NCBI GenBank assembly: GCA_965262985.1 | Contig: OZ253576.1 | Coordinates: forward strand, 3,209,213-3,273,212 | DNA: 64,000 bases | Direction: 5' to 3' | Source of the DNA: Vicinamibacterales bacterium | Lineage (GTDB): Bacteria > Acidobacteriota > Vicinamibacteria > Vicinamibacterales > UBA8438 | Position numbers and translations under genes: made by a program | Shown here: positions 5,906 through 37,156 of the stretch, piece by piece | Numbering within the stretch: position 1 is the stretch's first letter | Layout of the letters: the number at the start of each line of letters is the position of its first letter | Notes under the pieces: model-generated | Told to the model about the DNA's origin: nothing | Database searches by the model: none | Seen by the model: the letters and a program-made list of their open reading frames with translations, nothing else

Positions 5906-6031
5906 GTCCAGCGGCCCTGCAGCAGTCCGAACTGGTCTTCGTCCAACGGTGGTCGTGCCATGTGTGCCGCCTTCACGTGGCTCTTCAGTTCGTCCCTGGG
6001 ACTACGGCGCTCGCCGGGTTCACCGCCGACG

Positions 6032-6090
6032 GACGATAGACGGTATTAGAACACCCCGATCACCAAGACTCCTCATCCCGCGAGCAGGCG
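6032..6090 (-). mobile_element. IS91-family terminus, copy B (~59-bp solo end)
   Basis: GACGATAGACGGTATTAGAACACCCCGATCACCAAGACTCCTCATCCCGCGAGCAGGCG. Confidence 0.7.
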
Positions 6091-6355: not shown

Positions 6356-6595
6356 ATGGATACCATCAACGCCTCCGACTTCAAGGCCCGATGCCTGGCT
6401 ATCCTCGATCGCGTGCAGGCGACCGGCGAGCGGCTGGTCATCCTGAAGCGCGGTCAGCCTGTGGCAGAGCTGTGGCCCGCCAGCCGATCCCATGCCGAGT
6501 ATCCGCAGTTGGAACTCAAGGGTACCGTCATCGTCACCGGCGACATCGTTGAGCCGGCGGTTCCCGAAGAACACTGGGAAAGCCTCGGGCCATGA
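6356..6595 (+). CDS. Phd/YefM-family antitoxin
   Basis: MDTINASDFKARCLAILDRVQATGERLVILKRGQPVAELWP..; 79 aa. Confidence 0.75.
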   Translation: MDTINASDFKARCLAILDRVQATGERLVILKRGQPVAELWPASRSHAEYPQLELKGTVIVTGDIVEPAVPEEHWESLGP

Positions 6596-7485: not shown

Positions 7486-7827
7486 CCCCGCAGTGACTGT
7501 AATTCAACGAGTTTGTCGGTGTCTTCGGGAATTCCCGGGAACAGGAAAACAGGGGGATTGGCTCCTCAGGCTGGACTCAAACACCGGACTTAAGTGTATC
7601 TATATCAGTACTTTAAAGACATGCCTTCTGCATGTATCCCACGCCCATACCCACACGGACCGAGCGTTGCAGCGATCAGCTCGACTCAAATATCCGATAC
7701 ACAACGACTGGAACGTCGTCTTCTCGATCAGGATTCGCTGGGACATTGCTGTCCGCTCCCGCTCACTGCGGTTGGGAAGGCATGCATCAAGAGCGGTAAC
7801 CCGTCCATCCGGGGATAATTCAACGCA

Positions 7828-9129
7828 ATGGATATGCCAGCGACCTCTTCAACGATTGCTACGAATGTCTCGTTTTCGAGTTGGACAGGCGATAGGACAC
7901 CCAAGTCACTTGGGACCATTGCAGGATCGCCGCCGCTCGCCTTCCAGAACTGGCGGCGTATTAAGGAGGCATTTGCACCCGAATTGGTCGCGCGCGCTGT
8001 CGCCGAAACGACAGCTTCACTCGGAAGACCTGTAAGGACATGCATTGATCCCTTCGCCGGATCCGGAACTACTCCGCTGGCTTGCCAATTTCTTGGGGTG
8101 ATACCTACCGCAATTGAAGTAAATCCCTTTCTGTCCGATCTCATTGAAGCAAAGCTGACACCGATTGATGGTCAAGCGGTGGGAGCACGACTTGCGGAGA
8201 TTTTGGCCACGTCGAATGTACTTGATCCCGTGTCGTACTATCGTGGAGCTCCTCCTACTTTCGTGCAACCGGGTGTGAAGGGGAGGTATCTATTTTCACA
8301 TGACTTGGCATCACGAATAGCCAGCTTTCTTGACGCGATTTTGAACATTGAGGACATCCGGCTGCGGCGTTTTTTCCGCGTTCTTCTCGGCAGTGCAGCT
8401 ATTGAAGTTTGTAACGCCACCGTTAGTGGAAAAGGCCGACGATATAGACGCAATTGGGAAGCACGACAGTCGACACCTTCCGATTTGGACAATTTCTTTG
8501 CGAGAAGCGTACGGGCGGCCGTCTATGACTCTCTGAGATTTGCTGGTCGAAAGACGCTATCGTTCAGCCTCGTGAGAGGCGATGCGCTCCGGGCTCTAGG
8601 GACGATAGATGATATGGATTTAGCAGTATTTTCGCCGCCTTACCCTAACTCGTTCGACTATACAGATGTATACAATATTGAGTTGTGGATTTTACGATAT
8701 TTCACATGTTCCGAAGATAATACTCAATTACGGAAGTGCACAATGCATAGCCATGTACAGATCAAGCGGGAAATGGTTACCGGAACACCGCCCCCCATAG
8801 TTCAGGAGTCGATCGAAAGACTGCACATGGCACAAGGACTCTGGAACCCATGGATTCCGAATATGATCGGTGCCTATTTTGCCGACTTGACTTCGACAGT
8901 GAAAGAGCTGAAGCGTATGCTTCCCGACAAGGGGCGGGTGTACGCCGTGTTGGGCGACAGCAGATATTCGGGGGTTCATATTCCGGTGATTAATGGGTTC
9001 GCCGTTATAGCGTCCGAGCTTGGTTTTGATGTTGTATGTATTGAGCCCCTGGCATCGAAGCGAACGTCGCCACAACACGGCGGCCGTAGAGAACTTGGCG
9101 AGTCTTTGCTAACGCTGATGGCTCATTAG
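7828..9129 (+). CDS. DNA amino-methyltransferase (N6-A or N4-C), motif I before motif IV
   Basis: 433 aa. Motif I IDPFAGSGTTPL (~aa 74) and motif IV VFSPPYPNSFDY (~aa 270). ~50% GC. Its stop TAG 9127-9129 overlaps the convergent nuclease stop. Confidence 0.8.
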   Translation: MDMPATSSTIATNVSFSSWTGDRTPKSLGTIAGSPPLAFQNWRRIKEAFAPELVARAVAETTASLGRPVRTCIDPFAGSGTTPLACQFLGVIPTAIEVNPFLSDLIEAKLTPIDGQAVGARLAEILATSNVLDPVSYYRGAPPTFVQPGVKGRYLFSHDLASRIASFLDAILNIEDIRLRRFFRVLLGSAAIEVCNATVSGKGRRYRRNWEARQSTPSDLDNFFARSVRAAVYDSLRFAGRKTLSFSLVRGDALRALGTIDDMDLAVFSPPYPNSFDYTDVYNIELWILRYFTCSEDNTQLRKCTMHSHVQIKREMVTGTPPPIVQESIERLHMAQGLWNPWIPNMIGAYFADLTSTVKELKRMLPDKGRVYAVLGDSRYSGVHIPVINGFAVIASELGFDVVCIEPLASKRTSPQHGGRRELGESLLTLMAH

Positions 9130-9487
9130 GTGCCTGTTGCAACGGTAGAATCGCGCCATGCCCGTGGTGCATTGTAGATCGGCAACCGCACAACCAACAC
9201 TGCCTGAAGGTGCTCGCGGAGTTGCTCCGACAAGATGCCGGTGAGATCGTCCAATGGCGGTATCGCTACATCGAACAGCGCAAGGATGGCGAAGGGAAGG
9301 TCCAGGTCTTGGCGATAATGATATCCTTGGGAAAGCCCTTCCCGCGTGTCCGCCTTGTTCTTTGTTTCGGGTCCGCGAAGCACCTTGAGTTCGAGGACAC
9401 CCATCATGGTAGGGGCGCCAGTGGGACGTCTTTGCAAGAAGAGAAGGTCGCACCGACCGACATCTGTATTCGTTTGGCTCAGCACCT
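9126..9487 (-). pseudogene. 3' part of the split PD-(D/E)xK effector nuclease
   Basis: LSQTNTDVGRCDLLFLQRRPTGAPTMMGVLELKVLRG.. contains D-x19-ELK. It joins in frame to 12587-13264 once the IS21-like element is removed. The first 27 codons of track ORF 9126-9569 are IS-derived. Confidence 0.75.
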
Positions 9488-9537
9488 TGTTGGCGATCTC
9501 CAGGAACTGACGTTTTCTGCACCGCTGTCGACCGGGT

Positions 9538-10365
9538 TCATTGACGACGACGGGGTGGGTTGTCCCCATCTGGCGAGTCGTTGCGGCGCGGACGTCGTCG
9601 TTTGCGCTGCTGCTGGGTGAGTTCGGCCTCGCGCCGGCGATAGCTCCGACCTTCGACGAGGAGGATCTCGACGTGGTGAGTCAGGCGGTCGATCAGGGCG
9701 ACGGCGCAGGAGGCGTTGGGGAAGACGGTGTCCCAGTGCTTGAACGGCAGGTTGGTTGTGATGAGCAGGGAGCGGTGCTCGTAACGACGGCTGACGAGTT
9801 GGAAGAGCAGGTCGGCGGCCCGTGCGTCGTAGGCGAGATAGCCTACCTCATCGACCACGAGTAGTGATGGCCGCGTGTAGTGTCGGAGGCGTCGTTCGAG
9901 GGCTCGGGCCGTCTCCTGTCCGTTGAGGTTGAGCAGGAGGTCGGCGGCGGTGGTGAAGAGGGCGGAGTGTCCGGCGAGGATGGCCTGGTGGGCGATGTTC
10001 TTGGCGAGCATGGTTTTGCCGAGGCCCTGGGCCCCGACCAGGATGACGTTCTCGCCGCGGGCGAGGAAGTCGAGGGTGAGGATGCGTTCGAGGACGGGGC
10101 GGTCGAGGGCGGTCGGCCAGTTCCAGTCCCAGTCGGCGAGGGGCTTGAAGCGTCCCAATCGGGCGCAGGTGAGTCGGCGCTCGACGCTGCGGCGCTGTCG
10201 GTCTTCGAGCTCGGCGGCGACGAGGTGTTCGAGCAGCACGGTCGTGCTCCAGCGTTTGCGGGTGGCTGTGGCGACGAGGTCGTTGAGGTCGTCGGCGGTG
10301 CGATGGCATCCGAGTCGGCGGAGGTCAGTCGCCAGCGTCGTCGGGGGTGTGTCGTCCGAGGGCAT
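9538..10365 (-). CDS. istB: IS21-family helper ATPase IstB
   Basis: Walker A LVGAQGLGKTMLA and Walker B LLVVDEVGY. The internal ATG at 10365 overlaps the istA end. Confidence 0.85.
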   Translation of the reverse strand: MPSDDTPPTTLATDLRRLGCHRTADDLNDLVATATRKRWSTTVLLEHLVAAELEDRQRRSVERRLTCARLGRFKPLADWDWNWPTALDRPVLERILTLDFLARGENVILVGAQGLGKTMLAKNIAHQAILAGHSALFTTAADLLLNLNGQETARALERRLRHYTRPSLLVVDEVGYLAYDARAADLLFQLVSRRYEHRSLLITTNLPFKHWDTVFPNASCAVALIDRLTHHVEILLVEGRSYRRREAELTQQQRKRRRPRRNDSPDGDNPPRRRQ

Positions 10366-11827
10366 CGTAGGTCTCCAGGTCGTGGGGCCGGACGTCGAGG
10401 TCTCGCAGTCCCGGGCGGTCGGGCAAGGTAAGCCGGAGCGGGGGTTTGAGTCCGCGCTGTCGCCGGCGCGTTTCGAGGATGTGGGTGATGGAGCCGGCGC
10501 CGAGGGCGTCTCGTTGGAGGGCGTGGTCGACGGCGGCGGCGAGTTCCTGCGGCCCGTAGTCGTCGAGCAGCGCGAGCAGCCTGGTGCCATGCGGTCGCAG
10601 CGCCTCCCCGCGTTCTGCGAGCCGTTCGAAGAGGGTGGCGGTGGCGGGGACGGCGGCGCGGAGCCGGTCGCGGGTGGTGTGGACGTTGGCCTGGCGGGTG
10701 GCGGCGAGCAACCCTTCCAGATGCGCGGGGTCCTCGACGGTCTGTCCGGTGTCGTAGGTGCGGCGATGGCGGGCGAGCTCGGTCTGCTGGTCGAGGATGC
10801 GGACGCGGGTGTCGCTGGCGAGCAGGGTCAGGGGCTTGCGGACGTGGGTGTGGGGGATGGAGTAGAGATTGCGGTCGAAGCGGACGTAGGGGGTCTTGCC
10901 GGAGCGGACGACGCGCACGAGGTCGGTCTCGAAGGGATGGGCGGGGAGCGGCAGGAGGCGGGGCTGCTCGTCGGCCCAGACGTCGGCGACGGTGCGGTCG
11001 GGCATCTCGGGGTGGCGTCGTTGGTGGGCGACCTCGTCGCGCCAGCGTCGGAACTGGGCGTTGAGGTCGTCGAGGTCGCGGAAGGGCCGGGCGGCGAAGA
11101 AGGCGTGCCGTAGGTATTGGATCTGCCTCTCGATTTTTCCCTTCTCATTTCCGCGTCCCGGCGTGCAGGGGCGGGGCGCGAAGTGGTAGTGGCCGGCGAG
11201 CTCGAGCAGGCGGGGGTGAAACTGGACGGCGGTACCGCGGCGGTCGAGCACAGCGCTGCGCAGGTTGTCGTAGACGAGCGTGCGGGCGATGCCGCCCAGG
11301 GCCTCGAAGGCCTCGACGTGTCCGCGGAGGAAACTCTCAAGGGTCTGGTCGAGGGTGAAGAGGGCGGCGATGGCGCGCGAGTAGCCGAGGACCATGACGA
11401 ATCCGGAGACGGCGCGTGTGCCGTGTCCGATGCGAACCTTGCCGAAGGAGCCCCAGTCCACTTGACCTTGCTCGCCCACCAGGGTGACGACGCGGCGGTA
11501 GACGGTGCGGGTGGACTCGGGCCGCAGGCGCCGCACGAGGCGGCGGACCTGGATGACCGAGCCCGGGTAGCCGCGCTGGCGGACCATCTCGTGGATGCGG
11601 GTGGCGCGCAGCCGGGGGTACTGGGCCAGGGTGTCGCGAATGAACGGCAGGTAGGGGTCGAGGGCGGTCGGCCGACACACGCCGCCCCGGACGCTTCCCG
11701 ACGCGTGCTCGACCGCGGCGCGGACCGTCTCACGGTGGAGGCCGAGTTGAGCGGCGATGGTCCCGAGCTTCCAGTGCTCGCTGTAGTACAGGCGCCGGAT
11801 CTCGGCGCGCTGCGCGGGCGTGATCAT
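10325..11827 (-). CDS. istA: IS21-family DDE transposase IstA
   Basis: 500 aa. N-terminal HTH MITPAQRAEIRRLYYSEHWKLGTIAAQLGLHRETV, followed by a DDE core. Confidence 0.85.
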   Translation of the reverse strand: MITPAQRAEIRRLYYSEHWKLGTIAAQLGLHRETVRAAVEHASGSVRGGVCRPTALDPYLPFIRDTLAQYPRLRATRIHEMVRQRGYPGSVIQVRRLVRRLRPESTRTVYRRVVTLVGEQGQVDWGSFGKVRIGHGTRAVSGFVMVLGYSRAIAALFTLDQTLESFLRGHVEAFEALGGIARTLVYDNLRSAVLDRRGTAVQFHPRLLELAGHYHFAPRPCTPGRGNEKGKIERQIQYLRHAFFAARPFRDLDDLNAQFRRWRDEVAHQRRHPEMPDRTVADVWADEQPRLLPLPAHPFETDLVRVVRSGKTPYVRFDRNLYSIPHTHVRKPLTLLASDTRVRILDQQTELARHRRTYDTGQTVEDPAHLEGLLAATRQANVHTTRDRLRAAVPATATLFERLAERGEALRPHGTRLLALLDDYGPQELAAAVDHALQRDALGAGSITHILETRRRQRGLKPPLRLTLPDRPGLRDLDVRPHDLETYDALGRHTPDDAGD

Positions 11828-12203
11828 CGTTCCTCCTTCCCCGCACGACGCGAGGCTCCCGCATCGGGGTCAGCCACCGGCTCGATCGGCCGCAGACCAC
11901 GCATCGCGTGGCCGCCGGAACCGGGGCGGCGTCAGGGACGGGGAGTCTGTCCGATGGCGGGGGTGCGGGGGAAGTGTGATCCGTCACGCGCCGCCGGGCG
12001 CGGTAGGCGCGCTGCCGGTCGCGGTGGTCGAGACGTCCTTCCAGACTGCGCTGATGACGAGCGTTGGCGGCTCGAACGCACCGGCGACGACCGGCCGTCC
12101 GGCACGGCGACGTGCAGTAGGCATGGCCGCGGTCACACGCCGCGCAGACGGCGAAAAGACGGCTGCACTGGCGACAGGTTCTCTGGCGGAGGGGCTGGTC
12201 CAC
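11730..12203 (-). CDS. Cys-rich (zinc-finger-like) accessory ORF inside the IS21-like element
   Basis: MDQPLRQRTCRQCSRLFAVCAACDRGHAYCTSPC...RCVVCGR. Lies upstream of istA and overlaps its first 98 nt. Whether it is coding is uncertain. Confidence 0.35.
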   Translation of the reverse strand: MDQPLRQRTCRQCSRLFAVCAACDRGHAYCTSPCRTAGRRRCVRAANARHQRSLEGRLDHRDRQRAYRARRRVTDHTSPAPPPSDRLPVPDAAPVPAATRCVVCGRSSRWLTPMREPRVVRGRRNDDHARAARRDPAPVLQRALEARDHRRSTRPPP

Positions 12204-12586
12204 GGCGTCGGAGCGCGCAGGGCGATCTCCGACTGGACAACGAGCCTGAACCGTGGCACAACAGCAGGGACCGGCTCGGTCTGTCGGAGCTCGGGGCGGT
12301 CACGAGGGTCCGGTGGGCAAACCGGGCCCTCACCCCACGTCTGAGTCCGCTCCCTACGCTACCCGAACGCCGTGCCCACCGCCAGCGCCGGGGCCGTGGA
12401 CGCCGCCGCTCCCATGGACGCACAGAGCGCGCCCACCGGAGCTTGGAAAACCGCGTGGGCGCGGTTTCCCACAGCGCCCACCGCCATCATCTTCATCTTC
12501 CTCAAGATCCACACGAAAAGACCGGTGCCCGAGCCGAGCGCACCGACGAGTGTCGAGAATTTGTCACTATCTCGCGATCGTTGACA

Positions 12587-13264
12587 CACCTTAATGGGTC
12601 TCTGGCGACCAAGAAAAAAAGTTGTCAACTGACCCTTGATGTGCCGCTCCAGCTCATCTTCAGCTCGTTCGACTAGTGTCAGCTTGACCCAGAGCCTCGC
12701 CGTGTGGGCACTTGGGGTCTTCAAATTCTCTTCATAGGCGATTGTAAGAGCAGAGTTTACCTCGTCGCGTGTCAAATCGGTGTCGACGACGTTAATCGGT
12801 TTGCGAATGTGGTCGTCTGGCGAAGCAACGCCAGAGGGATATATCGTAGCAACACTACTCTTGGGGTCCCAAATAACCGTAGGCCGTTCATGCAGCGACA
12901 TTTCCTCCAATTCCTCCATTATCCGATTGGGCGAAGCCTGGCTGCACAACCGGCTCATGCCATTGTTGACATCTTGATTGGTTGCCACGATGTAACCGGA
13001 CAATTCCCCATAACCGTCTTGCATATGGGCAATACGAGAGAATCCCAGTTCGATCGTGTCGGGTCGGGGCGCTTCGCTGTAGACGAAAGCGCACATGGAG
13101 GAGAGGTCCGACCGGCGGGTCGCCGCCCTGATGCTGTTGATCACAAACCTCTCAGGAGGGTCAAATTCGTCAGGGACGGTATCGAGATCCTGTGAAGCGA
13201 CGAGCGCGATAATATCGTTGCGAAACGGGCTAGGTTGAGACTGGATCGGGGAGGCGTCAGCCAT
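12587..13264 (-). pseudogene. 5' part of the split effector nuclease (unknown N-terminal domain)
   Basis: 226 codons ending ..FFLGRQRPIKV exactly at the IS end. The remaining 76 codons of track ORF 12359-13264 are read-through into IS DNA. Confidence 0.75.
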
Positions 13265-13934
13265 TTGCCGCCCTTTTCAGATACTTAACGTAAAGATGTA
13301 CTTTCGCTGTGGGCGACAATCGTGCTTCCCCGTCGCCGAATGCGTGTACCGCAAGCTCCTCGATGCTGTCGGCACCCAAAGTGGAATAGTTCTGCGCTCG
13401 CCATTCCGCGTAATCAATTACCGCCCCGACATGGCCGGAATCCCATGTGACATCCAGCTTGGTGACGGCGTCCAGTTCGGTGTCCTGAATATTGCTCAGG
13501 GCCCCCGCCAATTCTCTAAAATAGTCTCGAAGGACGGACAACTCGTCCTGAGAGTAAACGACGTCGAGTACCGGTGAAGAACGGGCTCGTTGAAGGGTCA
13601 GAGAATAAGTGACGTAGGCTTGGGACTCTTCGACAACCGGAGCCAGATCATGAGGAGTAACCAGGTCAAGGCCGATCAGGCGGTCGATTTCCCACTGCAG
13701 ATCGGGGAAATACGGGAAAGATCGCCGCTTCAAGATCTTTCCGGACATGGGAACGAGACGGAATATGGGACTGAGTACATCCGCCAAAAAAGCAAGCGTA
13801 TGAAAGCGCTGCACGGAGATCGGGGCGAGTACCGCATAGTCGACAGCATCCAGGAGCATCAAGACGCGAACGCGGCGGCGCACTTGCATACCCTGCGATC
13901 CTAGCCATTCGGCCAAATCCGCATCGACAGTCAC
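13257..13934 (-). CDS. 'middle component'-like protein of the ABC ATPase system
   Basis: 225 aa, no recognisable motif. Its GTG start overlaps the ATPase stop (GTGA). Its stop overlaps the effector start (ATGGCTGA). Confidence 0.6.
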   Translation of the reverse strand: MTVDADLAEWLGSQGMQVRRRVRVLMLLDAVDYAVLAPISVQRFHTLAFLADVLSPIFRLVPMSGKILKRRSFPYFPDLQWEIDRLIGLDLVTPHDLAPVVEESQAYVTYSLTLQRARSSPVLDVVYSQDELSVLRDYFRELAGALSNIQDTELDAVTKLDVTWDSGHVGAVIDYAEWRAQNYSTLGADSIEELAVHAFGDGEARLSPTAKVHLYVKYLKRAANG

Positions 13935-15721
13935 AAGCCCGGTTCCTCTTCTCCGTGTGGCGGAAACAAGGCGCGATTCAGGAGATGGTCATAGCGATCA
14001 CCGATAATTTGAACTGCACTTGTTGGAGCCGCGATCTTCAGCAAGTCAATGACCCGGCTCCACCGCTGGTCCCGGGGAATGGCGAGCGGGTTGGGATCGC
14101 CAACTTCCGCGTTGTACGCCCCAAATAGCGCAGGGATCATATCGGCGTTGGTCAGATTCGAGGTCACAATCAGGCGGTTGTCGACATGATGTTCTGAGAA
14201 GCGCGCAAGGAAAGCGCCTGCGCGACGCATGAACAACGCATCGAGGCTTGCCTCCGGTGCGTCGAAAATAAGTGTCGCCGGGCCGTTGGCGACTGCGACT
14301 TCGACCAGTGCCAAGCGAAACGCGAGGTCAATGAACTCGCCTTGGGACATCGAGACCTCAGAGCGATCCAGCCGCGGGGAAGGATTGTCGAAGGTTCCGG
14401 ATGTCATGCTCAGTCTGAAGGCAGGCCATTCATAGCTCTTGCCGCTTTCTCCGATTGGGGCGCGAGTAGTGGTGAACGAGATTTCGGCGCGTTCCAGAAG
14501 GAATTCAGAGATTCGCTCAGAAAAGCGCTCTCGGATTTGGTCGGCGAGATCGTTGATTGTCTCCTGATACTCAAGAAATATTGAAGAAAACGCCCTTTCT
14601 GCGTCATCCTGTTCGGACTTCAGTTCTGCAAGTGTTTGATCTTGGCTGGCAACACGCTCTTCCAAAGAGCGAAGCTCGGGCGGGGTTGGAGGCAGTGAGC
14701 CGGCTATTTGCCGGACACGGGTTTCGTTGGTGCGACGTTCAATCAGGAGTTGGTCGATTTGTGCCTGAACCATGTCGTAGGCGGATTGCTTGGCTTCGAA
14801 TTCCTTCTGCGCGGTTTCCAAAGCCTGGCGAGCGCTGTTCAGCCGACCTTCCACTCGCGAGATACGTGCCGCGTCGATGGCTGCTGCGGGAATTATGGCT
14901 TCCTGATATTTCGGGGAGGCACCGCAGACAACGCAGTCTCCATCGGTTACGGCGGCAACCCACCGAGCAATCAATGGACCATCATCGGCACCGCAGACCA
15001 AGCAGGATTTGTCTCCGAGTAGACGATCGACGACATATCGGCCAGCGTCGGGCGCCGACGGGAAAGTATTGGCAACGCGCGTTAGTTTCAGCGCCTCCAA
15101 TTCACGTAAGTAGTCGTCGACATTGAATTTCGCGACCTCCAGAGTGGTGCGGAATTCGGTTCTGGCGTCGTCGGCTTGACCGCGCAGTTCATATAGTTCG
15201 CTAAGGCGTTCGGCCTGTGCGGCGATCGCCTCCTGCAAGGTATGGTATTCGGCGCTAAGGGAATCGGCGGCTTTTGACGCCACGCTTGCCCGCTTCAGTT
15301 TCCTCTTGTTACGGTTGGCGATGTACAAGAGGTTACGGTAGGCACTGTTGCAAGTAGCAACCTTTTGCGCACGATTAGCCAGTGCCTTGGCCTTTTCGGG
15401 CGACATGAACAGGGCGCGCAGAACGTTACGTTGCGCTAAAGGGGTCCATATAAGGAGGCTCCGTTCTTCAAACATGAAGACAATGAGATTTAGCAAGATA
15501 AGCACATCCGCGAAACTGCTTACGCGCATGGCAGAGGTGACCGCGGATTTGTAGCTGTCTTCGTCGACGGGTTGAGTAGAGTCATTCAATGACCACTCGA
15601 TGATCGACAAGTCATGAAGTGACCTGCAGACTGTAAATTCGTCTGAGCCAAGTGCAAATCGTAATTTCAAACGAGCAGCCCGGGCGCCGTCAGCCACACG
15701 TTTGCGAAATCGATCCGTTAG
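13931..15721 (-). pseudogene. 3' part of the split SMC-like ABC ATPase
   Basis: Long coiled coil interrupted by CLVCG-x21-CVVCG. C-terminal ABC signature VSMSQGE, Walker B ATLIFDAPEASLD. The first 13 codons of track ORF 13931-15760 are IS-derived. Confidence 0.8.
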
Positions 15722-17186
15722 CAGCCCGTGGTGAAAGTCCCCCATTCCAGGGATCGACATGATCGGTCCTGTGTCCTACACTGTCGTGCATGGCGATGGG
15801 GACAAGCCGCGGTCGAACGCGGCAAGCGACGATGTGGGTGCCCACGGCGGATCTGCCGAAGAGCGCGGGGCACCCGTTTTACGAGCGGCTGAATCGGGTG
15901 CTCGACGAGGCGGGGTTCGATGCGTTCGTGGAAGCGCAGTGCGCATCGTTCTACGCGGACGGGGTCGGTCGGCCGAGTCTGGCGCCGGGCCGGTATTTCC
16001 GGCTGCTGTTGCTCGGCTACTTCGAAGGGCTGGATTCGGAACGGGCAATCGCGTGGCGCGCCGCCGACTCTCTGAGCATTCGCACGTTTCTGGACTTCGC
16101 CCTCCACGAGGCCCCGCCGGACCACTCGACGCTGTCGCGCACCCGTCGCCTGATTGACCTCGAGACCCACCAGGCGGTGTTTACCTGGGTGTTGCAGCGA
16201 CTGGCCGACGCCTCGCTGGTGGTGGGGCGCACGGTGGGGATCGATGCCACGACGCTGGAAGCCAATGCGGCGATGCGGAGCATCGTGCGACGGGACACGG
16301 GCGAGAGCTACGACGCATTTCTGACCCGGCTGGCCGAGGCGTCCGGCCTCTCGACGCCGACGCGCGCCGAGTTGGCCCGGTTCGACCGGACCCGCAAGAA
16401 GAAGGGCTCGAACGCGGACTGGACCCACCCGCACGATCCGGACGCGAAGATCGCCAAGATGAAGGACGGCCGCACGCATCTGGCGCACACCGCCGAGCAT
16501 GCGGTCGACCTGGAAACAGGCGCCATCGTGGGCGTGACGGTGCAGGACGCGAGTGCGGGCGACACGACGACCCTGGTCGACACGCTCGTCACGGCTGCCG
16601 AGCAGGTCGAGGCGGTCGGCGCGCCGGGGATCGCGGAGGTCGTGGCCGACAAGGGGTATCACAGTAACGAGACGATGGTCGGGTTTGCGGCCATCGGCGT
16701 CCGCAGCTACGTCTCGGAGCCGGACCGCGGCCGACGGCACTGGAAGGGCCAGGCGGCCGCGCGGGACGCGGTGTATGCCAACCGCCGGCGGATCCGAGGC
16801 GCACGCGGGAAACGGCTGCTGCGGCAGCGGGGCGAGCTGGTGGAACGGCCCAACGCGCATCTCTACGAGACCGGCCGGATGCGCCGCGTCCATCTGCGCG
16901 GGCATCCCAACATCCTGAAACGGCTGCTCGTGCAGGTCTGCGGCGTCAATCTCGGGTTGCTCATGCGGCACCTGACGGGCGTCGGCACGCCGCGGAGCCT
17001 CCAGGGCCGCGCGGCGGCGCGTCTGGGCGCGCTGATCGGCCTCCTGAGCGGCTGCTGGGGGCGTGTGCGGCGCTTCTGGGCCCCGGAGCGCCATGATCGG
17101 CCCGATTCGTCGTGGGATGGTCCGGCGACACGCCAATACGGACACGCGATTCTCGATTGACAATCAGCCCCTTCTGCCACGGGCTG
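15722..17186 (+). mobile_element. IS5/IS1182-family insertion sequence, 1465 bp
   Basis: Terminal inverted repeats CAGCCCGTGG / CCACGGGCTG. 4-bp TSD TTAG at 15718-15721 and 17187-17190. Confidence 0.85.
15790..17160 (+). CDS. IS5/IS1182-family DDE transposase
   Basis: 456 aa. N-terminal InsH-type block GRPSLAPGRYFRLLLLGYFEGLDSERAIAWRAADSLSIRTFL, then a DDE domain. Confidence 0.85.
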   Translation: MAMGTSRGRTRQATMWVPTADLPKSAGHPFYERLNRVLDEAGFDAFVEAQCASFYADGVGRPSLAPGRYFRLLLLGYFEGLDSERAIAWRAADSLSIRTFLDFALHEAPPDHSTLSRTRRLIDLETHQAVFTWVLQRLADASLVVGRTVGIDATTLEANAAMRSIVRRDTGESYDAFLTRLAEASGLSTPTRAELARFDRTRKKKGSNADWTHPHDPDAKIAKMKDGRTHLAHTAEHAVDLETGAIVGVTVQDASAGDTTTLVDTLVTAAEQVEAVGAPGIAEVVADKGYHSNETMVGFAAIGVRSYVSEPDRGRRHWKGQAAARDAVYANRRRIRGARGKRLLRQRGELVERPNAHLYETGRMRRVHLRGHPNILKRLLVQVCGVNLGLLMRHLTGVGTPRSLQGRAAARLGALIGLLSGCWGRVRRFWAPERHDRPDSSWDGPATRQYGHAILD

Positions 17187-17430
17187 TTAGGCGGTGAGGC
17201 ACAACATCCGGTCGGGGAACCCCATATTCATCATTTCTAATCGAAGCGGGTCCTACCACGCCATGATAGAGAGCCAATAGTAATGTGGATTTACCAAGCC
17301 CATTGACCCCGGCAACTAAATGCAATCCCGGACTAAAGGTGTGGGATAGCCCTGGACTATGTTCGTCACCGGGGAACATTTGGTAGTCATCGATAGCAAC
17401 CTGGCGGTAAATGGGCAGACAGATCGTCAT
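17187..17430 (-). pseudogene. 5' part of the split SMC-like ABC ATPase
   Basis: MTICLPIYRQVAIDDYQMFPG...GLHLVAGVNGLGKSTLLLAL (Walker A). Joins in frame to 15717 downward after IS removal. Confidence 0.8.
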
Positions 17431-17837
17431 TGTGTGTAGTGTCCGGTCGGGTATGGCTTGGCCATGGTAAGTTGCGACAATGGAGATTGGCAACGGGAAT
17501 GGGCGGGATGGATTTCTACATTTTGCCTGTCGAAGAGAAGGTCATACTTCGTGCAATGGAGTATCAGGTCCGTGGAGGTGTGTATGCGCCGGCGCCCACT
17601 TGGCTGGATAGCCTGGATTCGGGTCGGCAAGGAAGCGATGGCCGACAATGGGCATTGGGCCAAGACTGAGGCCAGGGAGCGTGAGCTGAATGGTTCCATG
17701 CATGGCTCGTCGAAGTCCGTGGCCGTAGTGCAACGAGAATTGGCGCCGGCGTCAACCGTGTTCGGAGCGGGACTGGTCCCGGCGGTGGTCAGGGACGGCG
17801 GGCCCAGCAGGTTCCGTTTGCGAAGCCAGATGCCCAT
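17427..17837 (-). CDS. doubtful small ORF upstream of the ATPase
   Basis: Its stop overlaps the ATPase start (ATGA), but the composition is not convincingly protein-like and the start is uncertain. Confidence 0.2.
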   Translation of the reverse strand: MGIWLRKRNLLGPPSLTTAGTSPAPNTVDAGANSRCTTATDFDEPCMEPFSSRSLASVLAQCPLSAIASLPTRIQAIQPSGRRRIHTSTDLILHCTKYDLLFDRQNVEIHPAHSRCQSPLSQLTMAKPYPTGHYTQ

Positions 17838-17993
17838 TCAGGTGCGCGACCGCGCCGGGCACCCGGACGGCCCTCGGCCGCCAGGAGGCTAAGGGGCCGG
17901 TATTGGCGGCGCCGGTATCGGCATCGGCACCAACCGGCACGACCGGGCCGGTGTCGACCGTGAGCTCGGCCACCGGCCCCCAGTTATGGGTCT

Positions 17994-18419
17994 GACGATT
18001 GACGATATTAGAGCACCCCGATCACCAAGACTCCTCATCCCGCGACAGGCGGATTGACCACACCGTCACGCAGATAGCCCCCGTCACGGGAGGATTACCG
18101 CCTGACTGAACACGTCGGGCCTAGAATGACCGCTCGTCAGGCCGAGGTCAAGGCCAGATGCGCGTGATGGAAGCGTACTTCAGGTGTGCTGACGGGGCAG
18201 AGAGGGGAGTCAGGCGGGGTCGTCGACGCAGAACTCGTCGGACGCGTCAGACTGAGGCGCGCCGTCGAGGAGCAGTGCCGGCGGCGCGCGTGCCGGCCGC
18301 GCCTCGGGGACCTCGGTTGGCAGCTCCAGGTGCTGCAACATGCGCCCAATGACGGCGGGATCGTCGATGAGCGCGATGAGCGTGAGCCGCCCGCCACATC
18401 GGGGACAGGCGTGGTGGAA
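17994..18419 (-). mobile_element. IS91-family element remnant, copy C (terminus + transposase C-terminus)
   Basis: 157-bp conserved terminus 17994-18150, near-identical to 31957-32113, followed by the transposase 3' end. Confidence 0.75.
18210..18419 (-). pseudogene. IS91-family (Y2/HUH) transposase, C-terminal 69 aa only
   Basis: [47 protein letters not shown].. Confidence 0.65.
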
Positions 18420-18750
18420 GCGGACGCGGCCCACGCACTGGCTCCTCCCGGGGGCTCGTCCGGCCCGACCGATCAGCCGCAGCGCGGTGGAACAGGAATG
18501 CCAGCACGCGCGCCGGCGGTGCCGGATTCCCAAACCCATTACCCCGCATTCCCTACGGCATGCCTTCGCCGTCCACTTGCTTGAAACCGGCACCGACGTG
18601 CGCACGATTCAGCTCCTGCTCGGGCATCGCGGTCTCGCCACCACGGCGCGCTATCTGCGCATCGCCACGACGACGGTCTGCTCGACCACCAGCCCGCTCG
18701 ACTTGCTCCCACGGCCCCTTCCGCCGGCCGCCCGACTCCCCACGCCGTAG
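18409..18750 (+). pseudogene. tyrosine recombinase, C-terminal fragment
   Basis: [55 protein letters not shown] aligns with residues ~180-289 of the E2 recombinase. Confidence 0.75.
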
Positions 18751-18768
18751 CGCGTCTGAGGGGGCGAG

Positions 18769-19932
18769 GTGCGCATGGATCGGCCGAAACACGCCGTGGC
18801 GGACGTGTTCCGCCGCTACGGCGACACCTTCGGGCCCAGGCGGGAGCCGCGCTCTTGACGGTGTCAACGGTCATTCAAAACTCCCCCACCTGCGGTCATC
18901 GAAAATTCCCCCACCCCTGGTTGATCACAACGATGAGACGAGTGCCGGTGGGCGCTGTGGGCATACACGCGTCTGGTACAACAGTTGTCGCAATCGACAT
19001 TGCGCGACCTGCCAATCGCTGGCGCGCGCCGCGTGGATCGAACAGCGCCAGGCGGAGATTCTCGACTGTGACTACTTCCACGTGGTGTTCACCGTGCCCG
19101 ACGCGATCGCCGAGATCGCGTTGCAGAACAAAGCCGTCGTCTATGGCATCTTGTTCCGCGCCACCGCCAAGACGCTCCGGACGATCGCGGCCGACCCGAC
19201 CCATCTGGGCGCCGAGATCGGGTTCTTTGCCGTCTTGCATACGTGGGGGCAGACCCTGATGCACCATCCCCATCTGCATTGCGTCGTCCCCGGCGGCGGC
19301 CTGTCCCCAGATGGCACCCGTTGGATCGCGTGCCGGCCCGGCTTCTTGCTGTCGGTCCGCGTCCTCTCGCGCCTGTTCCGACGGCTGTTTCTCTCAGATC
19401 TCCAAAAGGCGTTCGACGCGGGGCGCCTGCACTTCGCGGCGTCACTCGACGCCCTGACCGAGCGCCAGGCTTTTGCCGATTTCCTGACACCGGTGCGCCA
19501 GACCGACTGGGTCGTCTACGCCAAGCCGCCGTTTGCCGGGCCGCAACAGGTGCTTGACTACGTCGGTCGCTACACCCATCGGATCGCCATCTCCAACAAT
19601 CGGTTGCTGGACATGGAGGCGGGCCAGGTTCGATTCCGCTATCGGAAATACCGGGCGAACCGGTCCCAGATGCACGCCACAATGACCCTCACCGCAACGG
19701 AGTTCATCCGACGGTATCTCCTGCACGTTTTGCCGACCGGGTTCCACCGGATTCGCTACTACGGCTTCCTCGGCAATCGGCACCGCGCAGAGAAGCTGGC
19801 CCTCTGCCGGCAACTGCTCGGGACGGGATCGACTCCAGCGCCCCCCAGCGAGTCCCCGCCACCTCCGGACTATCGTGACCGCTACGAGTCCCTCACCGGG
19901 ATCTCCCTGCACACGTGTCCCGTCTGTCACGA
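18769..19932 (+). pseudogene. Y2/HUH 'IS91-family' transposase of E1 (multiple lesions)
   Basis: The N-terminus VRMDRPKHAVADVFRRYGDTF stops at 18856-18858. A 70-bp foreign insert (18861-18930) replaces the Cys-cluster region. The rest is in another frame (HHPHLHCV; YVGRYTHR). It is cut at ..CPVCHD by E2. Confidence 0.75.
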
Positions 19933-20117
19933 TGTCAACGATCGCGAGATAGTGACAATTGGACTAAACCGCTTCGCGGTAGACGCTGAATCGACCTGCC
20001 GACCCTGAGGCGGCCAGCCAGCCAGATCGTCCGGCCGCTGCAGCTCGTCCGCCGTCTCGCCGTACGCTGCTCTGCAAGCGCCTGGAATCCCCCGGGCCCT
20101 TCGCAGAGGAGCGTTCC

Positions 20118-20987
20118 ATGACATCTCTTCGTCAACGCATGCTCGAAGACATGCAGGTGCGGCAGCTGTCGCCGTGCACCCAACAGACATACGTCGAGAC
20201 CGTCGCGCGGTTCGCCCGCCACTTCGACCGTTCCCCGGCTCGTCTCGGCCCGGAGGCGATCCGCGCCTACCAGGTCTACCTGACCAACGAACGCCGTCTT
20301 GCGCCGAGCTCGGTCGTCGTCGCCGTGTCGGCGCTCCGTTTCCTCTATCGGGTCACGCTCCGGAAACAGTGGGTCTTCGACGACGTGATCCCCGTACCGA
20401 AGAAGCCCCGGTCCTTGCCGGTCGTGCTCAGCCGCGACGAGGTGGTGCAGTTCCTCGACGCCGTCAAGGCCGCCAAGCATCACGCCATCCTGACCACGTG
20501 CTACGCCGCCGGCCTCCGCGTCTCCGAGGCCATCCATCTCGCCGTGTCCGCCATCGACAGCCACCGGATGGTGCTCCGCATCGAGCAGGGCAAGGGGAAG
20601 AAGGACCGCTACGTGATGCTCTCGCCGAAGCTGCTCGAGGTCCTGCGCGCCTGGTGGCAGGTCGACCGGCCCCGGCATTGGCTCTTTCCCGGCGAGCGCC
20701 CGGAGAAGCCCATCACTCGCAAGGCGGTCCAGCTTGCCTGCCAGCGCGCCGTCCGACGCGCGAAGCTCACCAAGCCGGTTTCTCCGCACGCGCTCCGCCA
20801 CGCGTTCGCGGTCCATCTCCTCGAGGCGGGCACCGACCTCCGTACGATTCAGCTGCTGCTCGGGCATCGGAGCCTGCAGACCACGGCCCGCTACCTGCAG
20901 GTCGCCACCAGCACGGTCTGTTCGACCGCCAGTCCGCTGGACCTCCTCCCGCGGCCTGTAGGGAAACCGAACCCGGACATCGCCTGA
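20118..20987 (+). CDS. tyrosine recombinase (phage-integrase family)
   Basis: 289 aa. ..AGLRVSE.. / [37 protein letters not shown] (R..HxxR..Y). Confidence 0.85.
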   Translation: MTSLRQRMLEDMQVRQLSPCTQQTYVETVARFARHFDRSPARLGPEAIRAYQVYLTNERRLAPSSVVVAVSALRFLYRVTLRKQWVFDDVIPVPKKPRSLPVVLSRDEVVQFLDAVKAAKHHAILTTCYAAGLRVSEAIHLAVSAIDSHRMVLRIEQGKGKKDRYVMLSPKLLEVLRAWWQVDRPRHWLFPGERPEKPITRKAVQLACQRAVRRAKLTKPVSPHALRHAFAVHLLEAGTDLRTIQLLLGHRSLQTTARYLQVATSTVCSTASPLDLLPRPVGKPNPDIA

Positions 20988-20996
20988 GCGACGGTC

Positions 20997-22208
20997 GTGC
21001 CACGCGCCGCGCTCACCGTGGCGGAGGTCTTCCGCCGCTACGGTGACACCTTCCGGGCTCAGGCCGGGGCCGCCCTCTCGACGGCGCAGCGTCGGGTGAT
21101 GACGGCCATCGAGCAGTGCCGCACCGCCGCACTCGGCGGCCACGTCGAGCAGTGCGACCGTTGCGGCCATCGCCGCGTCTGGTACAACTCCTGTCGCAAC
21201 CGCCACTGCCCGACCTGTCAGTCGCTGGCCCGCGCCGCGTGGCTCGAACGGCGCCGGGTGGACCTGCTTCCCACCGAGTACTTTCACGTCGTCTTCACCG
21301 TCCCTCCGGCGGTCGCCGAGATCGCCACCCAGAACAAGGCCGTCGTCTACGGTCTCCTCTTCCGCGCCGTCGCCGAGACGCTCCGCACCATCGCCGCCGA
21401 CCCTCGCCATCTCGGCGCCGAGATCGGCTTCTTCGCCGTCCTCCACACCTGGGGCCAGACGCTCGTCCATCACCCGCATCTGCACTGCGTGATTCCGGGT
21501 GGGGGGCTCGCAACCGATGGCAGCGGGTGGGTTGCCTGCCGCCCCGGGTTCTTCCTGCCGGTCCGGGTCCTGTCACGCTACTTCCGTCGGGTCCTCCTCC
21601 ACGCGCTGCAGGACGCCTTCGAGTCCGGAAAACTGGGCTTCGCCGGTCGGCTGCAGGCCCTCAACGACCCCCGGCGCTTCGCCGAGCACCTCCGCCCGGC
21701 CCGCGAGGCCGAATGGGTGGTCTACGCGAAGCGACCCTTCGCCGGTCCCGAGCAGGTCCTCGACTACCTCGGCCGTTACACCCACCGGATCGCCATCAGC
21801 GACCAGCGCCTGTGCAGCCTCGACGACAGCTGCGTGCGCTTCCGCTACAAGGACTATCGTCGGGCCGGCGCGTCCCGCCACAAGACCATGACGCTGACGG
21901 CGACCGAGTTCATCCGGCGCATGCTTCTCCACGTGCTCCCGCCCGGCTTCCACCGCATTCGCTACTACGGCTTCCTCGCCAATCGCAACCGGCAGCAGAA
22001 GCTCTCCGAGTGCCGGCGGCTGCTGCACGCGCCCCCGCTACCATCGGCAGAGCACGCCGGTCCCGCCACAATCGACTACCGGGATCGCTATGAGGCGCTG
22101 ACCGGCCGCTCGATGCGGCGGTGTCCCCGGTGCGACGACGGAAACATGCTCGTCGTCGACCACCTCGCCGGCAGGTGCGTGGCGCCCGCCATCCTGGATT
22201 CCTCGTGA
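20997..22208 (+). CDS. Y2/HUH transposase (IS91-family type)
   Basis: 403 aa. Zn-binding CDRCGH..CRNRHCPTC, HUH motif HHPHLHCV, tyrosine pair YLGRYTHR. Confidence 0.85.
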   Translation: MPRAALTVAEVFRRYGDTFRAQAGAALSTAQRRVMTAIEQCRTAALGGHVEQCDRCGHRRVWYNSCRNRHCPTCQSLARAAWLERRRVDLLPTEYFHVVFTVPPAVAEIATQNKAVVYGLLFRAVAETLRTIAADPRHLGAEIGFFAVLHTWGQTLVHHPHLHCVIPGGGLATDGSGWVACRPGFFLPVRVLSRYFRRVLLHALQDAFESGKLGFAGRLQALNDPRRFAEHLRPAREAEWVVYAKRPFAGPEQVLDYLGRYTHRIAISDQRLCSLDDSCVRFRYKDYRRAGASRHKTMTLTATEFIRRMLLHVLPPGFHRIRYYGFLANRNRQQKLSECRRLLHAPPLPSAEHAGPATIDYRDRYEALTGRSMRRCPRCDDGNMLVVDHLAGRCVAPAILDSS

Positions 22209-31956: not shown

Positions 31957-32746
31957 GACGATAGACGATATTAGAGCACCCCGATCACCAAGACTCCTCA
32001 TCCCGCGACAGGCGGATTGACCACACCGTCACGCAGATAGCCCCCGTCACGGGAGGATTACCGCCTGACTGAACACGTCGGGCCTGGAATGACCGCTCGT
32101 CAGGCCGAGGTCAGTCAAGCTCGTCAACCCCGAGGGCGTGGTCTCCCGAGTACTGACTCGCTCCTTCCACCCCGAGCCCGTGACCGATCGGATCCTGGAG
32201 GCCGAGGTGGAGCGTCAGCTCGAGGAGTATGCGGACCAGTCCGCGGTTGCGTCCAGGAGTCCGAGGACCTTCATGGACGGGCCGACCGGCAACACCGTCC
32301 AGCGTGTCGTCGCCGTCATTCCCCGCGTCTGCGCCCCCGCCCGCTCGCCGCTGAACGTACGCCTCCACGGTGGCGAGCACCTCGTCGACGTCCGCCGCGT
32401 GGAGCGACGGGCACGGGTGGAAGCGCACCGACTCGCCGTCCTTCGCGAACACGCCGTCGACCACCAAGGCGTGGATGTGAACATTGAGATTCAGGGCTCC
32501 CCCGAACCGCTGCAGGATCGCCACCGCCCCGCCACGGCCATCCGTCACCCCGGCGTCTCGCGCCCGCCGGCGGAGGAACCCGAGGATCGCCCGCATGGTG
32601 CGCCCCACAACGGCGCGGCAGAGATCGTGATCCCAGGCCAGCCGGTCGTCAGGCGGCTCCCCGCACGTGACGGATCTCAAGCCAGATCGTCGACGCTTGC
32701 TGTTCGAGCGGGCGGCGTGCGGCGTGCCGGGGTCCCGGGAGGGCAA
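31957..32746 (-). mobile_element. IS91-family element remnant, copy D (terminus + internal transposase fragment)
   Basis: 157-bp terminus 31957-32113, near-identical to 17994-18150. The interior carries a deletion relative to copy C. Confidence 0.7.
32111..32746 (-). pseudogene. IS91-family (Y2/HUH) transposase internal fragment
   Basis: ..GAVAILQRFGGALNLNVHIHALVVDGVFAKDG.. (HUH block). N- and C-terminal parts are missing or out of frame. Confidence 0.65.
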
Positions 32747-36792: not shown

Positions 36793-36850
36793 TGCAGCAA
36801 TCCTCGTTGGGTTCGGCCTGACTCAGGGCGGCGAGCTTCGAAAGCAGACG

Positions 36851-37115
36851 AACAGGGCAACCACAAGGGTTGCCCCTATATCTCACCTTGCTCAGAACAG
36901 GGCAACCACAAGGGTTGCCCCTACATCTCACCTTGCTCAGAACAGGGCAACCACAAGGGTTGCCCCTACATCTCGCCTTGCTCAGAACAGGGCAACCACA
37001 AGGGTTGCCCCTACATCTCGTCTTGCTCAGAACAGGGCAACCACAAGGGTTGCCCCTACATCTCGCCTTGCTCAGAACAGGGCAACCACAAGGGTTGCCC
37101 CTACTTCTCGCGTTG
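36851..37115. repeat. six tandem 45-bp REP units inside the gcd operon
   Basis: Units start at 36851, 36896, 36941, 36986, 37031 and 37076. Consensus AACAGGGCAACCACAAGGGTTGCCCCTACATCTC(A/G)CCTTGCTCAG. Each unit folds as GGGCAACC-ACAAG-GGTTGCCC. Confidence 0.9.
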
Positions 37116-37156
37116 CCACGCGGGCGCCTCGCCACGCTCGGTTTCACCACGGGCTC

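Follow-up and report, generated by a model that had tools for sequence, protein, structure and literature searches.

Restriction-modification (R-M) systems distinguish self from non-self by methylation, with a motor of the helicase type or with no motor. On the current view, Lamassu-type systems respond to DNA structures by killing the infected cell, without any self/non-self distinction. A literature search of incomplete coverage returned no description of a methyltransferase-bearing system of the SMC-like or Lamassu-like kind, and the word "methyl" is absent from the Lamassu literature searched for it, including 10.1101/2025.04.02.646746. Here we describe a locus in which the two themes appear to meet. 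It lies in a 64,000-nucleotide stretch of contig OZ253576.1 of a Vicinamibacterales bacterium (hereafter the window), and consists of genes for an SMC-like ABC ATPase, a 225-aa middle protein, a PD-(D/E)xK nuclease and a DNA amino-methyltransferase. We favour, with some reserve, the reading that it is an SMC-linked, R-M-like defence module of four genes, which is dead in the window. Its parts, numbered from the first letter of the window, are as follows.

7490-17993, no strand: low-GC island, horizontally acquired, holding the four-gene module and two later insertion sequence (IS) insertions
7828-9129, plus strand: DNA amino-methyltransferase, 433 aa, intact, with motif I (DPFAGSGTT) before motif IV (SPPY)
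9126-9487, minus strand: 3' fragment of the nuclease gene (residues ~225-344), with the PD-(D/E)xK core D238, E257-x-K259 and Q278xxxY282
9488-12586, minus strand: IS21-like element, with istA at 10325-11827 and istB at 9538-10590; target-site duplication (TSD) CACCT
12592-13264, minus strand: 5' fragment of the nuclease gene (residues 1-~224), encoding a conserved alpha/beta N-terminal domain
13257-13934, minus strand: middle gene, 225 aa, intact, encoding a helical protein with a winged-helix-like core
13931-15721, minus strand: 3' fragment of the ATPase gene (residues ~81-676), with coiled coils, a double CxxC apex (C320/C323/C343/C346), signature VSMSQGE and Walker B LIFDAPEASLD
15722-17186, plus strand: IS5/IS1182-like element, with a transposase gene at 15790-17160, TSD TTAG and 10-nt terminal inverted repeats
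17191-17430, minus strand: 5' fragment of the ATPase gene (residues 1-~80), with Walker A GVNGLGKS
17431-17993, minus strand: leader or promoter region upstream of the ATPase operon; an open reading frame (ORF) at 17427-17837 (136 aa) is probably no gene

Several traits are shared with the short type of Lamassu (ABC-3C, DdmABC). These are an SMC/Rad50-like ABC ATPase of ~600-680 aa with LmuB as its best profile, CxxC motifs at the apex (two copies are known in short LmuB), a Walker B motif without a glutamate after the aspartate, a division into ATPase, small middle protein and nuclease effector, and a sporadic distribution on mobile elements. On the other hand, the module has the order B-C-A, whereas the canonical order is LmuA-LmuC-LmuB (A-C-B). 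This difference was pointed out in the original prediction, made from the letters of the window alone, and the order ATPase-middle-nuclease is the same in every locus that we found. The nuclease domain of the module is C-terminal, behind an alpha/beta domain, while the LmuA effector is N-terminal and followed by a helical docking C-terminal domain (CTD), and the methyltransferase is an integral, conserved fourth gene of the module. The original prediction saw ABC-3C/Lamassu logic in the locus. For the ATPase this probably holds, though only as remote LmuB homology; for the other two proteins it does not, with LmuC or middle-component (MC) models matching 0/56 middle proteins and LmuA or CTD models 0/50 nucleases. 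Judged from the sequences, membership in Lamassu/ABC-3C is not established, as neither the LmuA architecture nor the operon order of that type is found.

With classical R-M systems, the module shares an amino-methyltransferase tightly linked to a PD-(D/E)xK nuclease, the convergent arrangement of these genes, a helix-turn-helix (HTH) gene upstream of the methyltransferase in some loci, and decay to an orphan methyltransferase. It differs in that its restriction side is an SMC-like coiled-coil ABC ATPase with a candidate adaptor, assigned by linkage, and not a helicase-type motor, and in that its nuclease is RecB-like (QxxxY). BREX, DISARM and MADS also unite a methyltransferase with ATPases and a nuclease, in multigene cassettes that are conserved, and MADS has further points of contact in a weak mad3 match of the ATPase and in one locus (L028) where a related methyltransferase stands beside a mad8-like KaiC-type ATPase. 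However, these systems have six to eight genes against the four of the module, which contains no PglZ, PglX, DrmA/B or any further signature gene of theirs and has an SMC/Rad50-like ATPase. Identity with MADS was rejected, since in place of the eight-gene mad1-mad8 cassette only mad3 finds a match, weaker than that of LmuB. Wadjet (JetABCD) likewise joins an SMC-family ATPase, a kleisin-like winged-helix partner and a nuclease to restrict foreign DNA, but its SMC protein is hinge-type and MukB-like, its nuclease JetD is of the Toprim type, it has no methyltransferase, and the JetC models are marginal on the module.

The evidence that the four genes belong together comes from homologous loci. 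In the recurrent layout, genes for an ATPase (655-756 aa), a middle protein (202-253 aa) and a nuclease (344-412 aa) follow each other, with a methyltransferase gene (428-458 aa) adjoining. The full layout was found in L002/5, L003/4, L007, L008/9, L012, L013, L014-16, L017, L018/19 and L020, and further in L022, L027, L029, L032, L033/34 and the P0070 contig. Among loci collected with the nuclease or the middle protein (the window, L002, L003, L007, L008, L012, L013, L014, L017, the P0070 contig and L006), the methyltransferase lies directly beside the nuclease gene in 10 of 11, L006 being the exception, and the two genes are nearly always convergent, with their stops overlapping or abutting. 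Among those collected with the methyltransferase at 38-50% identity (L018, L020, L022, L023, L025, L026, L027, L029, L032, L033 and L028), the triad or its visible part is present in 10 of 11, the exception being L028. The methyltransferase adjoins the triad in 20 of the 21 independent loci, and the linkage is kept down to identities of 26-33% in the ATPase, 29-37% in the middle protein and 22-25% in the nuclease. The contexts are mutually unrelated: the gap between RNase E and aspS, type IV secretion or integrative and conjugative elements with TraG, ArdC and ParB, viral contigs, and a serine recombinase neighbour. Because the linkage is seen from both sides, across diverged clades and through rearrangements, the methyltransferase belongs to the system (METHYLTRANSFERASE: methyltransferase as part of the system). 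Intact homologues, about which the original prediction had asked, are always syntenic, and of the two options it had offered, a modification-linked variant or a mere neighbour, the conservation of the methyltransferase across deep clades supports the first.

Individual loci show how the arrangement varies. In L029 (IMG/VR contig, 7866-12885) the methyltransferase, the ATPase (688 aa), a 202-aa gene and a 372-aa nuclease lie on one strand and overlap. In L022 (Burkholderia stagnalis NZ_CP156686.1, 2439-12562) a single methyltransferase stands between two complete triads; an alpha/beta-hydrolase gene follows the second triad. In two clades, L018/19 and L033/34, a ~107-aa gene of the HTH_31 family (XRE-type) lies divergently just upstream of the methyltransferase (7627-7947 in L018, 6641-6964 in L033), which is the place of the controller protein in type II R-M systems. 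At 8022-13458 of L028, an IMG/VR contig, a methyltransferase of 43% identity faces, in convergent orientation, a gene for an 849-aa KaiC/mad8-like ATPase, accompanied by two further genes without assignment (274 and 279 aa). The group may represent a further methylation-linked module, not described so far, that draws on the same methyltransferase family. The named hosts of the module outside the window are all Pseudomonadota, the family comprises several deep clades and ~300-470 clusters at 50% identity, and intact copies occur in culturable strains, e.g., Caulobacter ginsengisoli DSM 18695. The copy of this strain lies on contig NZ_JAUSVS010000014 at ~24.3-29.4 kb, and another intact one is in the Pseudomonadales metagenome-assembled genome OY762274.

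In the window, the nuclease gene is split by the IS21-like element and the ATPase gene by the IS5/IS1182-like one, while the methyltransferase and the middle gene are whole. The CACCT duplication of the former lies at 9483-9487 and 12587-12591. Its products match Pfam models for IstA (rve, rve_3 and Mu-transpos_C_2) and IstB (IstB_IS21, 8.7e-64), so that 9488-12586 has the make-up of the IS21 family: istA with a DDE/rve domain, istB with an IstB ATPase and a short TSD. The TTAG duplication of the latter lies at 17187-17190 and 15718-15721, its terminal inverted repeats are CAGCCCGTGG/CCACGGGCTG, and its transposase matches DUF772 (9.5e-18) and DDE_Tnp_1; with a single DDE_Tnp_1 transposase, inverted repeats and a 4-bp YTAR-type TSD, 15722-17186 belongs to the IS5/IS1182 group. 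The boundaries of both elements are exactly those that had been drawn. A solo copy of 152 bp at 1156-1307 is 95% identical to the right end of the IS5/IS1182-like element (17039-17190) and abuts a copy of the repeat described below; this solo end shows that the family has moved or decayed elsewhere in the genome.

The genes were repaired by taking out each element together with one TSD copy. The ATPase gene then runs from 17430 to 13931 on the minus strand (676 aa) with the junction ..VVPHRL|TDRFRKRVA.. in frame, and the nuclease gene from 13264 to 9126 on the minus strand (344 aa) with the junction ..QRPIKV|LSQTNT.. in frame. The claims of the original prediction that the genes of an SMC-like ABC ATPase and of a PD-(D/E)xK nuclease, on either side of a 225-aa gene, were each broken by an independent insertion, and that removal of the insertions gives uninterrupted frames for 676 and 344 aa, were both reproduced. 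The repair is more than a plausible reading, because the metagenomic contig L001 carries the empty site of the IS21 insertion and so gives independent proof. It is continuous across the site at 97.6-98.5% nucleotide identity and encodes an intact protein of 344 aa, 98% identical to the repaired nuclease. Another contig, L021, has the same IS21 insertion as the window. A Pseudomonadales genome (L002/L005) encodes proteins of 676, 225, 344 and 433 aa, arranged as in the window.

The finer details of the original prediction also fared well for the most part. The overlaps GTGA, ATGGCTGA and ATGA are present, as is the convergent overlap CATTAG, in which the methyltransferase ends with TAG at 9127-9129 and the nuclease with TAA at 9126-9128 on the opposite strand. 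The motifs GVNGLGKS, VSMSQGE, LIFDAPEASLD, DPFAGSGTT and SPPY were confirmed, but two spacings had to be corrected, from x21 to CLVCG-x18-CVVCG in the ATPase and from x14 to CDLLFL-x11-GVLELKVL in the nuclease. A GC content of ~50% had been given for the island against ~68% for its surroundings. The contrast is real and its size was overstated, since the island without IS DNA (5,931 bp) has 54.8% GC and the flanks have 66-67%. The two IS elements have 69-70%. In most of the other loci, too, the flanks exceed the module in GC. The doubt about the 136-aa ORF at 17427-17837 proved justified. Its only match is in L008, where the nucleotide identity, at 66%, is higher than the 42% of the amino acids; L002 and all other loci gave none, and neither did Pfam. 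It was therefore rejected as a fifth gene for lack of conservation as a protein, and is probably leader or promoter DNA. A promoter and terminator scan gave matches at chance level only, and an Rfam scan of the window gave none.

Of the four proteins, the methyltransferase has changed least, with 47-50% identity between clades as opposed to 22-33% for the ATPase and the nuclease. Among 20 homologues with identities as low as 38%, motif I (DPFGGSGTT) and motif IV (FSPPYPNSFDY) are invariant, and the N-terminal region outside the catalytic motifs is strongly conserved as well. The protein matches the PADLOC model MTase_II PDLC03224 (6.9e-37) and a DNA methyltransferase family of phages in PHROGs (1.3e-30). 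With the AdoMet motif I and a motif IV of the form (D/N/S)PP(Y/F), it has the sequence features of a DNA methyltransferase of the R-M kind; SPPY is commoner in N4-cytosine enzymes. No solved structure was matched by its sequence. A 25%-identical methyltransferase is found in L024 (Cryobacterium plasmid pA28BH1, 6929-13163) in a different five-gene cluster, made up of two methyltransferases, a hypothetical protein, an AAA ATPase and another hypothetical protein, which adjoins Tn7-like TniB/TniQ genes.

The start of the ATPase, MTICLPIY, agrees with the starts of its homologues, e.g., MTISLPIY in L002. The family has a Walker A motif GxNGxGK[ST], a signature S-x-SQ-x-E and a Walker B motif hhhh[D/E][A/T]PE-SLD. 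The coiled coil has two arms of ~120 residues each, and at its apex four cysteines, invariant in an alignment of nine sequences, form two CxxC motifs with a spacing of 18-20 residues. In 15/16 ATPases, both this double CxxC and hhhh[DE][AT]PE were found. Motif searches were positive in every clade examined, apart from the Walker B pattern in L020 and the signature pattern in L029. Directly behind the Walker B acid, where the catalytic glutamate would normally be, the residue is Ala or Thr without exception, and a glutamate stands two positions further on wherever the Walker B motif was found. Among defence models, the best match of the ATPase is the PADLOC model LmuB PDLC03859, in 9/9 members with E-values from 1e-15 to 1e-19, and the L029 ATPase (688 aa) covers this model almost end to end. 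Matches to the mad3, PbeC, DndD, JetC and AriA models are weaker (mad3, 2e-8 to 2e-13; DndD or PbeC in some members, 1e-7 to 1e-10). When the ATPase was searched against solved structures, alone or as a profile, only weak Rad50 heads and coiled-coil noise were obtained, and no solved LmuB was matched by its sequence. On the strength of these profile matches, the ATPase is probably a remote relative of LmuB, in line with the SMC-like/Lamassu link that was drawn originally. The zinc hook had been listed there as a trait that sets the ATPase apart from Lamassu. This does not hold, since short LmuB proteins, which average ~600 aa, with zero, one or two CxxC zinc-hook motifs and a Walker B motif hhhhD[Q/S/T/E] are already known (10.1101/2025.04.02.646746). 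As short LmuB has both features, the hook and the degenerate Walker B motif count as a likeness to it (10.1101/2025.04.02.646746).

The middle protein belongs to a family of at least 124 clusters at 90% identity, and it has no match in Pfam, PADLOC, NCBIfam, PHROGs or the sequences of the PDB. The Pfam ABC-3C MC families match 0/56 middle proteins and the PADLOC LmuC models 0/6 of those tested, so that the position as the middle gene is all that it shares with LmuC. Its AlphaFold (AF2) model, with a mean local confidence (pLDDT) of 80 and a global one (pTM) of 0.80, is helical with a beta-hairpin "wing". The best Foldseek neighbours of this model in the PDB are the winged-helix regulators PadR, VanR and RTP and a chain of the DarTG complex; no Lamassu subunit is among them. 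A scan of viral contigs with the alignment of the middle protein found nothing. Of the Caulobacter proteins, NCBI names came back for the middle protein and the methyltransferase, and PGAP calls both "hypothetical".

The AF2 model of the nuclease has two domains (pLDDT 84.6; ~88-95 over residues 60-150). In the C-terminal half it shows an alpha-beta-beta-beta-alpha-beta core at residues ~200-330, and 14 sequences that cover all clades agree in E202, D238, E257, K259, Q278 and D297 without exception. This pattern of E, D, ExK and QxxxY we take to be that of PD-(D/E)xK nucleases of the RecB, Cas4 and lambda-exonuclease type. The Pfam family PDDEXK_9 matches 36/50 nucleases, always under the gathering score. 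Foldseek against the viral models of BFVD, which told more about this half, returned PD-(D/E)xK, Mrr, Cas4 and restriction-endonuclease proteins (probability 0.97-1.0, E near 1e-2), and the full model against the PDB gave only weak matches with E >= 0.01 (SfsA, MUS81, EcoO109I, Bse634I). The catalytic site of the family is intact, and its genes are linked to the methyltransferase across taxa. The N-terminal domain is confidently modelled and strongly conserved (HMQDG, TNxDANNG, VIWD), and no convincing structural neighbour of it was found by Foldseek in the PDB or BFVD; hits to DisA/CdaA-like proteins were rejected as too weak to identify it. A profile search of 1.84 billion representatives found 474 relatives of the nuclease, 297 of them at E <= 1e-10. 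As most of those listed (345-375 aa) are matched over both domains, the two-domain architecture is fixed. Neither LmuA nor CTD models match the 50 nucleases or five diverged members. That the Pfam library used does include ABC-3C families is seen from PF20279, which came up a single time with a score no better than chance. In solved structures, the nuclease profile found a single hit, a thioredoxin at chance level (E 0.23), which was discarded. No match to the nuclease was found in plasmids by tblastn. For the module proteins, nothing exceeded the NCBIfam cut-offs, and PHROGs gave the methyltransferase match and coiled-coil noise only.

From these components we propose an R-M-like defence or addiction system. 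The methyltransferase would mark the resident DNA, and the three translationally coupled genes for ATPase, middle protein and nuclease would be the restriction half. The 225-aa protein, as a winged-helix adaptor, would take the place of the middle component or of a kleisin. By analogy with Lamassu, SbcCD and Wadjet, the complex of ATPase and adaptor may clamp or scan DNA, and it would license the RecB-like nuclease on unmarked, i.e., foreign, DNA. Complex formation, a function in defence and protection by methylation are inferred. The R-M-like logic has several pieces of circumstantial evidence in its favour: the convergent layout as in type II systems, the HTH_31 gene at the controller position in two clades, the reuse of the methyltransferase family with another ATPase module in L028, and the survival of the methyltransferase in decayed copies (the window and L023). 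Whether the locus is the founding example of an undescribed defence class, with methyltransferase self-marking, a Rad50/LmuB-type sensor, a winged-helix adaptor and a RecB-like nuclease, is to us an evenly balanced question, and we are similarly divided on whether this class would be an evolutionary and mechanistic bridge from R-M to Lamassu-type SMC immunity.

A number of observations speak against the R-M-like reading. RecB-like QxxxY nucleases are usually not site-specific, and neither the middle protein nor the nuclease has a match among solved subunits of Lamassu or R-M systems. The LmuB matches of the ATPase score only 50-70 bits, part of which comes from the coiled coil. The system is rare: a scan with the nuclease pattern, which misses distant clades, detected it in just 3 of 185,579 species genomes. 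In L006 (Acetobacteraceae metagenome-assembled genome, 964-3463) the middle and nuclease genes have no methyltransferase downstream; in its position lies a 361-aa ORF whose sequence, read by eye, looks HNH-like. The two triads of L022 are mutually only 24-28% identical, which is awkward for a matched specificity of the nucleases. Finally, methylation-dependent protection of DNA is pure conjecture. Because of the usually non-specific nature of RecB-like nucleases, L022 and L006, we favour the version in which specificity would reside in the methyltransferase or its mark and sensing in the SMC-like complex. Any particular way of reading methylation is held less firmly than the overall R-M-like reading.

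Some of these observations bear on a second explanation, namely that the module is methylation-linked but not for self-protection: the methyltransferase might act as a recognition subunit, as in type I and III systems or PglX of BREX, or as a regulator, or the nuclease might act on modified DNA. A single methyltransferase that serves two deeply diverged triads in L022 would place specificity in the methyltransferase or its mark, and its standing as the most conserved protein (47-50% between clades), with a conserved N-terminal region outside the catalytic motifs, would fit such a role. However, the methyltransferase is usually a convergent unit of its own, as is typical of free-standing type II methyltransferases, its contact with the triad is hypothetical, and L006 keeps nuclease and middle protein without it. 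We regard this explanation as unlikely, if worth keeping in mind, next to a self-marking R-M-like module.

The way in which the module decayed is a separate question, and the original prediction took the two IS insertions as a sign that a toxic system had been counter-selected. In its favour, both enzymatic genes of the restriction side were hit and the methyltransferase was spared, which is the only safe order of loss for an R-M-like system; since the insertions broke only the ATPase and the nuclease, an orphan methyltransferase is left in the window. In Azospirillum L023 the methyltransferase ORF is also intact and the ATPase and nuclease are broken. On the other side, insertion of the IS5 type is biased to the island by its target sites. 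Outside IS DNA, 17 of the 38 TTAG/CTAA sites of the window fall inside the island, which makes up ~10% of this DNA, a density of 2.87 against 0.39 per kb (7x). Moreover, the genome is rich in IS elements, with IS91/integrase copies, and L001 carries the same IS5 family at another place. Given the target-site density and the IS-rich genome, counter-selection is not needed to account for the insertions, and two events are too few to establish selection. The suggestion is therefore unsupported, and we consider it doubtful.

A third explanation takes the module out of immunity and sees in it a DNA-processing or maintenance module of mobile elements, either acting on ends and hairpins like SbcCD or working like the Dnd or Pbe machines, so that the SMC-like ATPase and the nuclease would help to put the modification in place. 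The ATPase profile weakly matches Rad50 heads, some members match DndD or PbeC (1e-7 to 1e-10), and many loci lie in conjugative elements. With SbcCD and Rad50-Mre11, the module has in common a zinc-hook-type coiled-coil ABC ATPase and a nuclease. It departs from them in a much shorter coiled coil, two CxxC motifs per chain and a PD-(D/E)xK nuclease in place of the Mre11 phosphoesterase, and it is mobile and sporadic, whereas SbcCD is a housekeeping complex. The locus tables contain no gene for an Mre11/SbcD calcineurin-like phosphoesterase, and no DndA, DndC or DndE and no PbeA, PbeB or PbeD partners, and the PbeC/DndD hits are weaker than those of LmuB; identity with SbcCD and with Dnd/Pbe was rejected on these grounds. 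As the sporadic spread, low GC, defence-gene neighbours and IS decay fit an accessory conflict system, we think this third explanation quite improbable. That the locus is an ordinary Lamassu (ABC-3C) abortive-infection system beside a functionally unlinked orphan type II methyltransferase, as might be thought from LmuB as the best defence match, the three-gene ATPase/middle/effector logic and the double CxxC with a degenerate Walker B, is largely refuted by synteny and very improbable indeed, since the methyltransferase is kept in 10/11 of the nuclease/middle-derived loci, across clades of 22-35% identity, in unrelated contexts and once within one operon, no LmuA, LmuC, ABC-3C MC or CTD model matches, and both the genes and the domains of the effector stand in the opposite order to those of Lamassu.

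If the R-M-like reading is true, SMC/Rad50-type DNA sensing could be combined with epigenetic self-marking, and the module would offer a tractable test of how an SMC-like clamp gives a nuclease licence to act on unmodified DNA. Two unannotated protein families, the middle protein and the two-domain nuclease, would then join the catalogue of defence genes. The system is not recognised by the PADLOC models, Pfam or NCBIfam. The window illustrates how such a module decays, with the restriction genes going first and an orphan methyltransferase staying behind.

Some features around the island were also recorded. A repeat of ~60-157 nt occurs in four copies with 93-99% identity (1079-1154, 6028-6090, 17994-18150 and 31957-32113). 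The island is directly adjoined on its right by one copy and has another 1.4 kb to its left, and the repeat is found in L001 (6163-6225) as well. Just left of the island, at 6356-6595, a PhD/YefM-type antitoxin gene (79 aa) is followed by a tiny ORF, a pair that is conserved in L001 and L021. On the right, 18340-22003 holds IS91-family (Y2 transposase) genes paired with tyrosine-recombinase genes in two diverged copies (18968-19797 and 21174-22003, 73% identical). In L001, a run of four tyrosine-recombinase genes, of which three overlap, lies beside the same IS91-type gene. Farther away, at 36850-37116, there is a tandem array with a unit of 45 nt, in 5.9 copies with 97% match, in which each unit has a short hairpin (GGGCAACC..GGTTGCCC); the array has no Rfam match.

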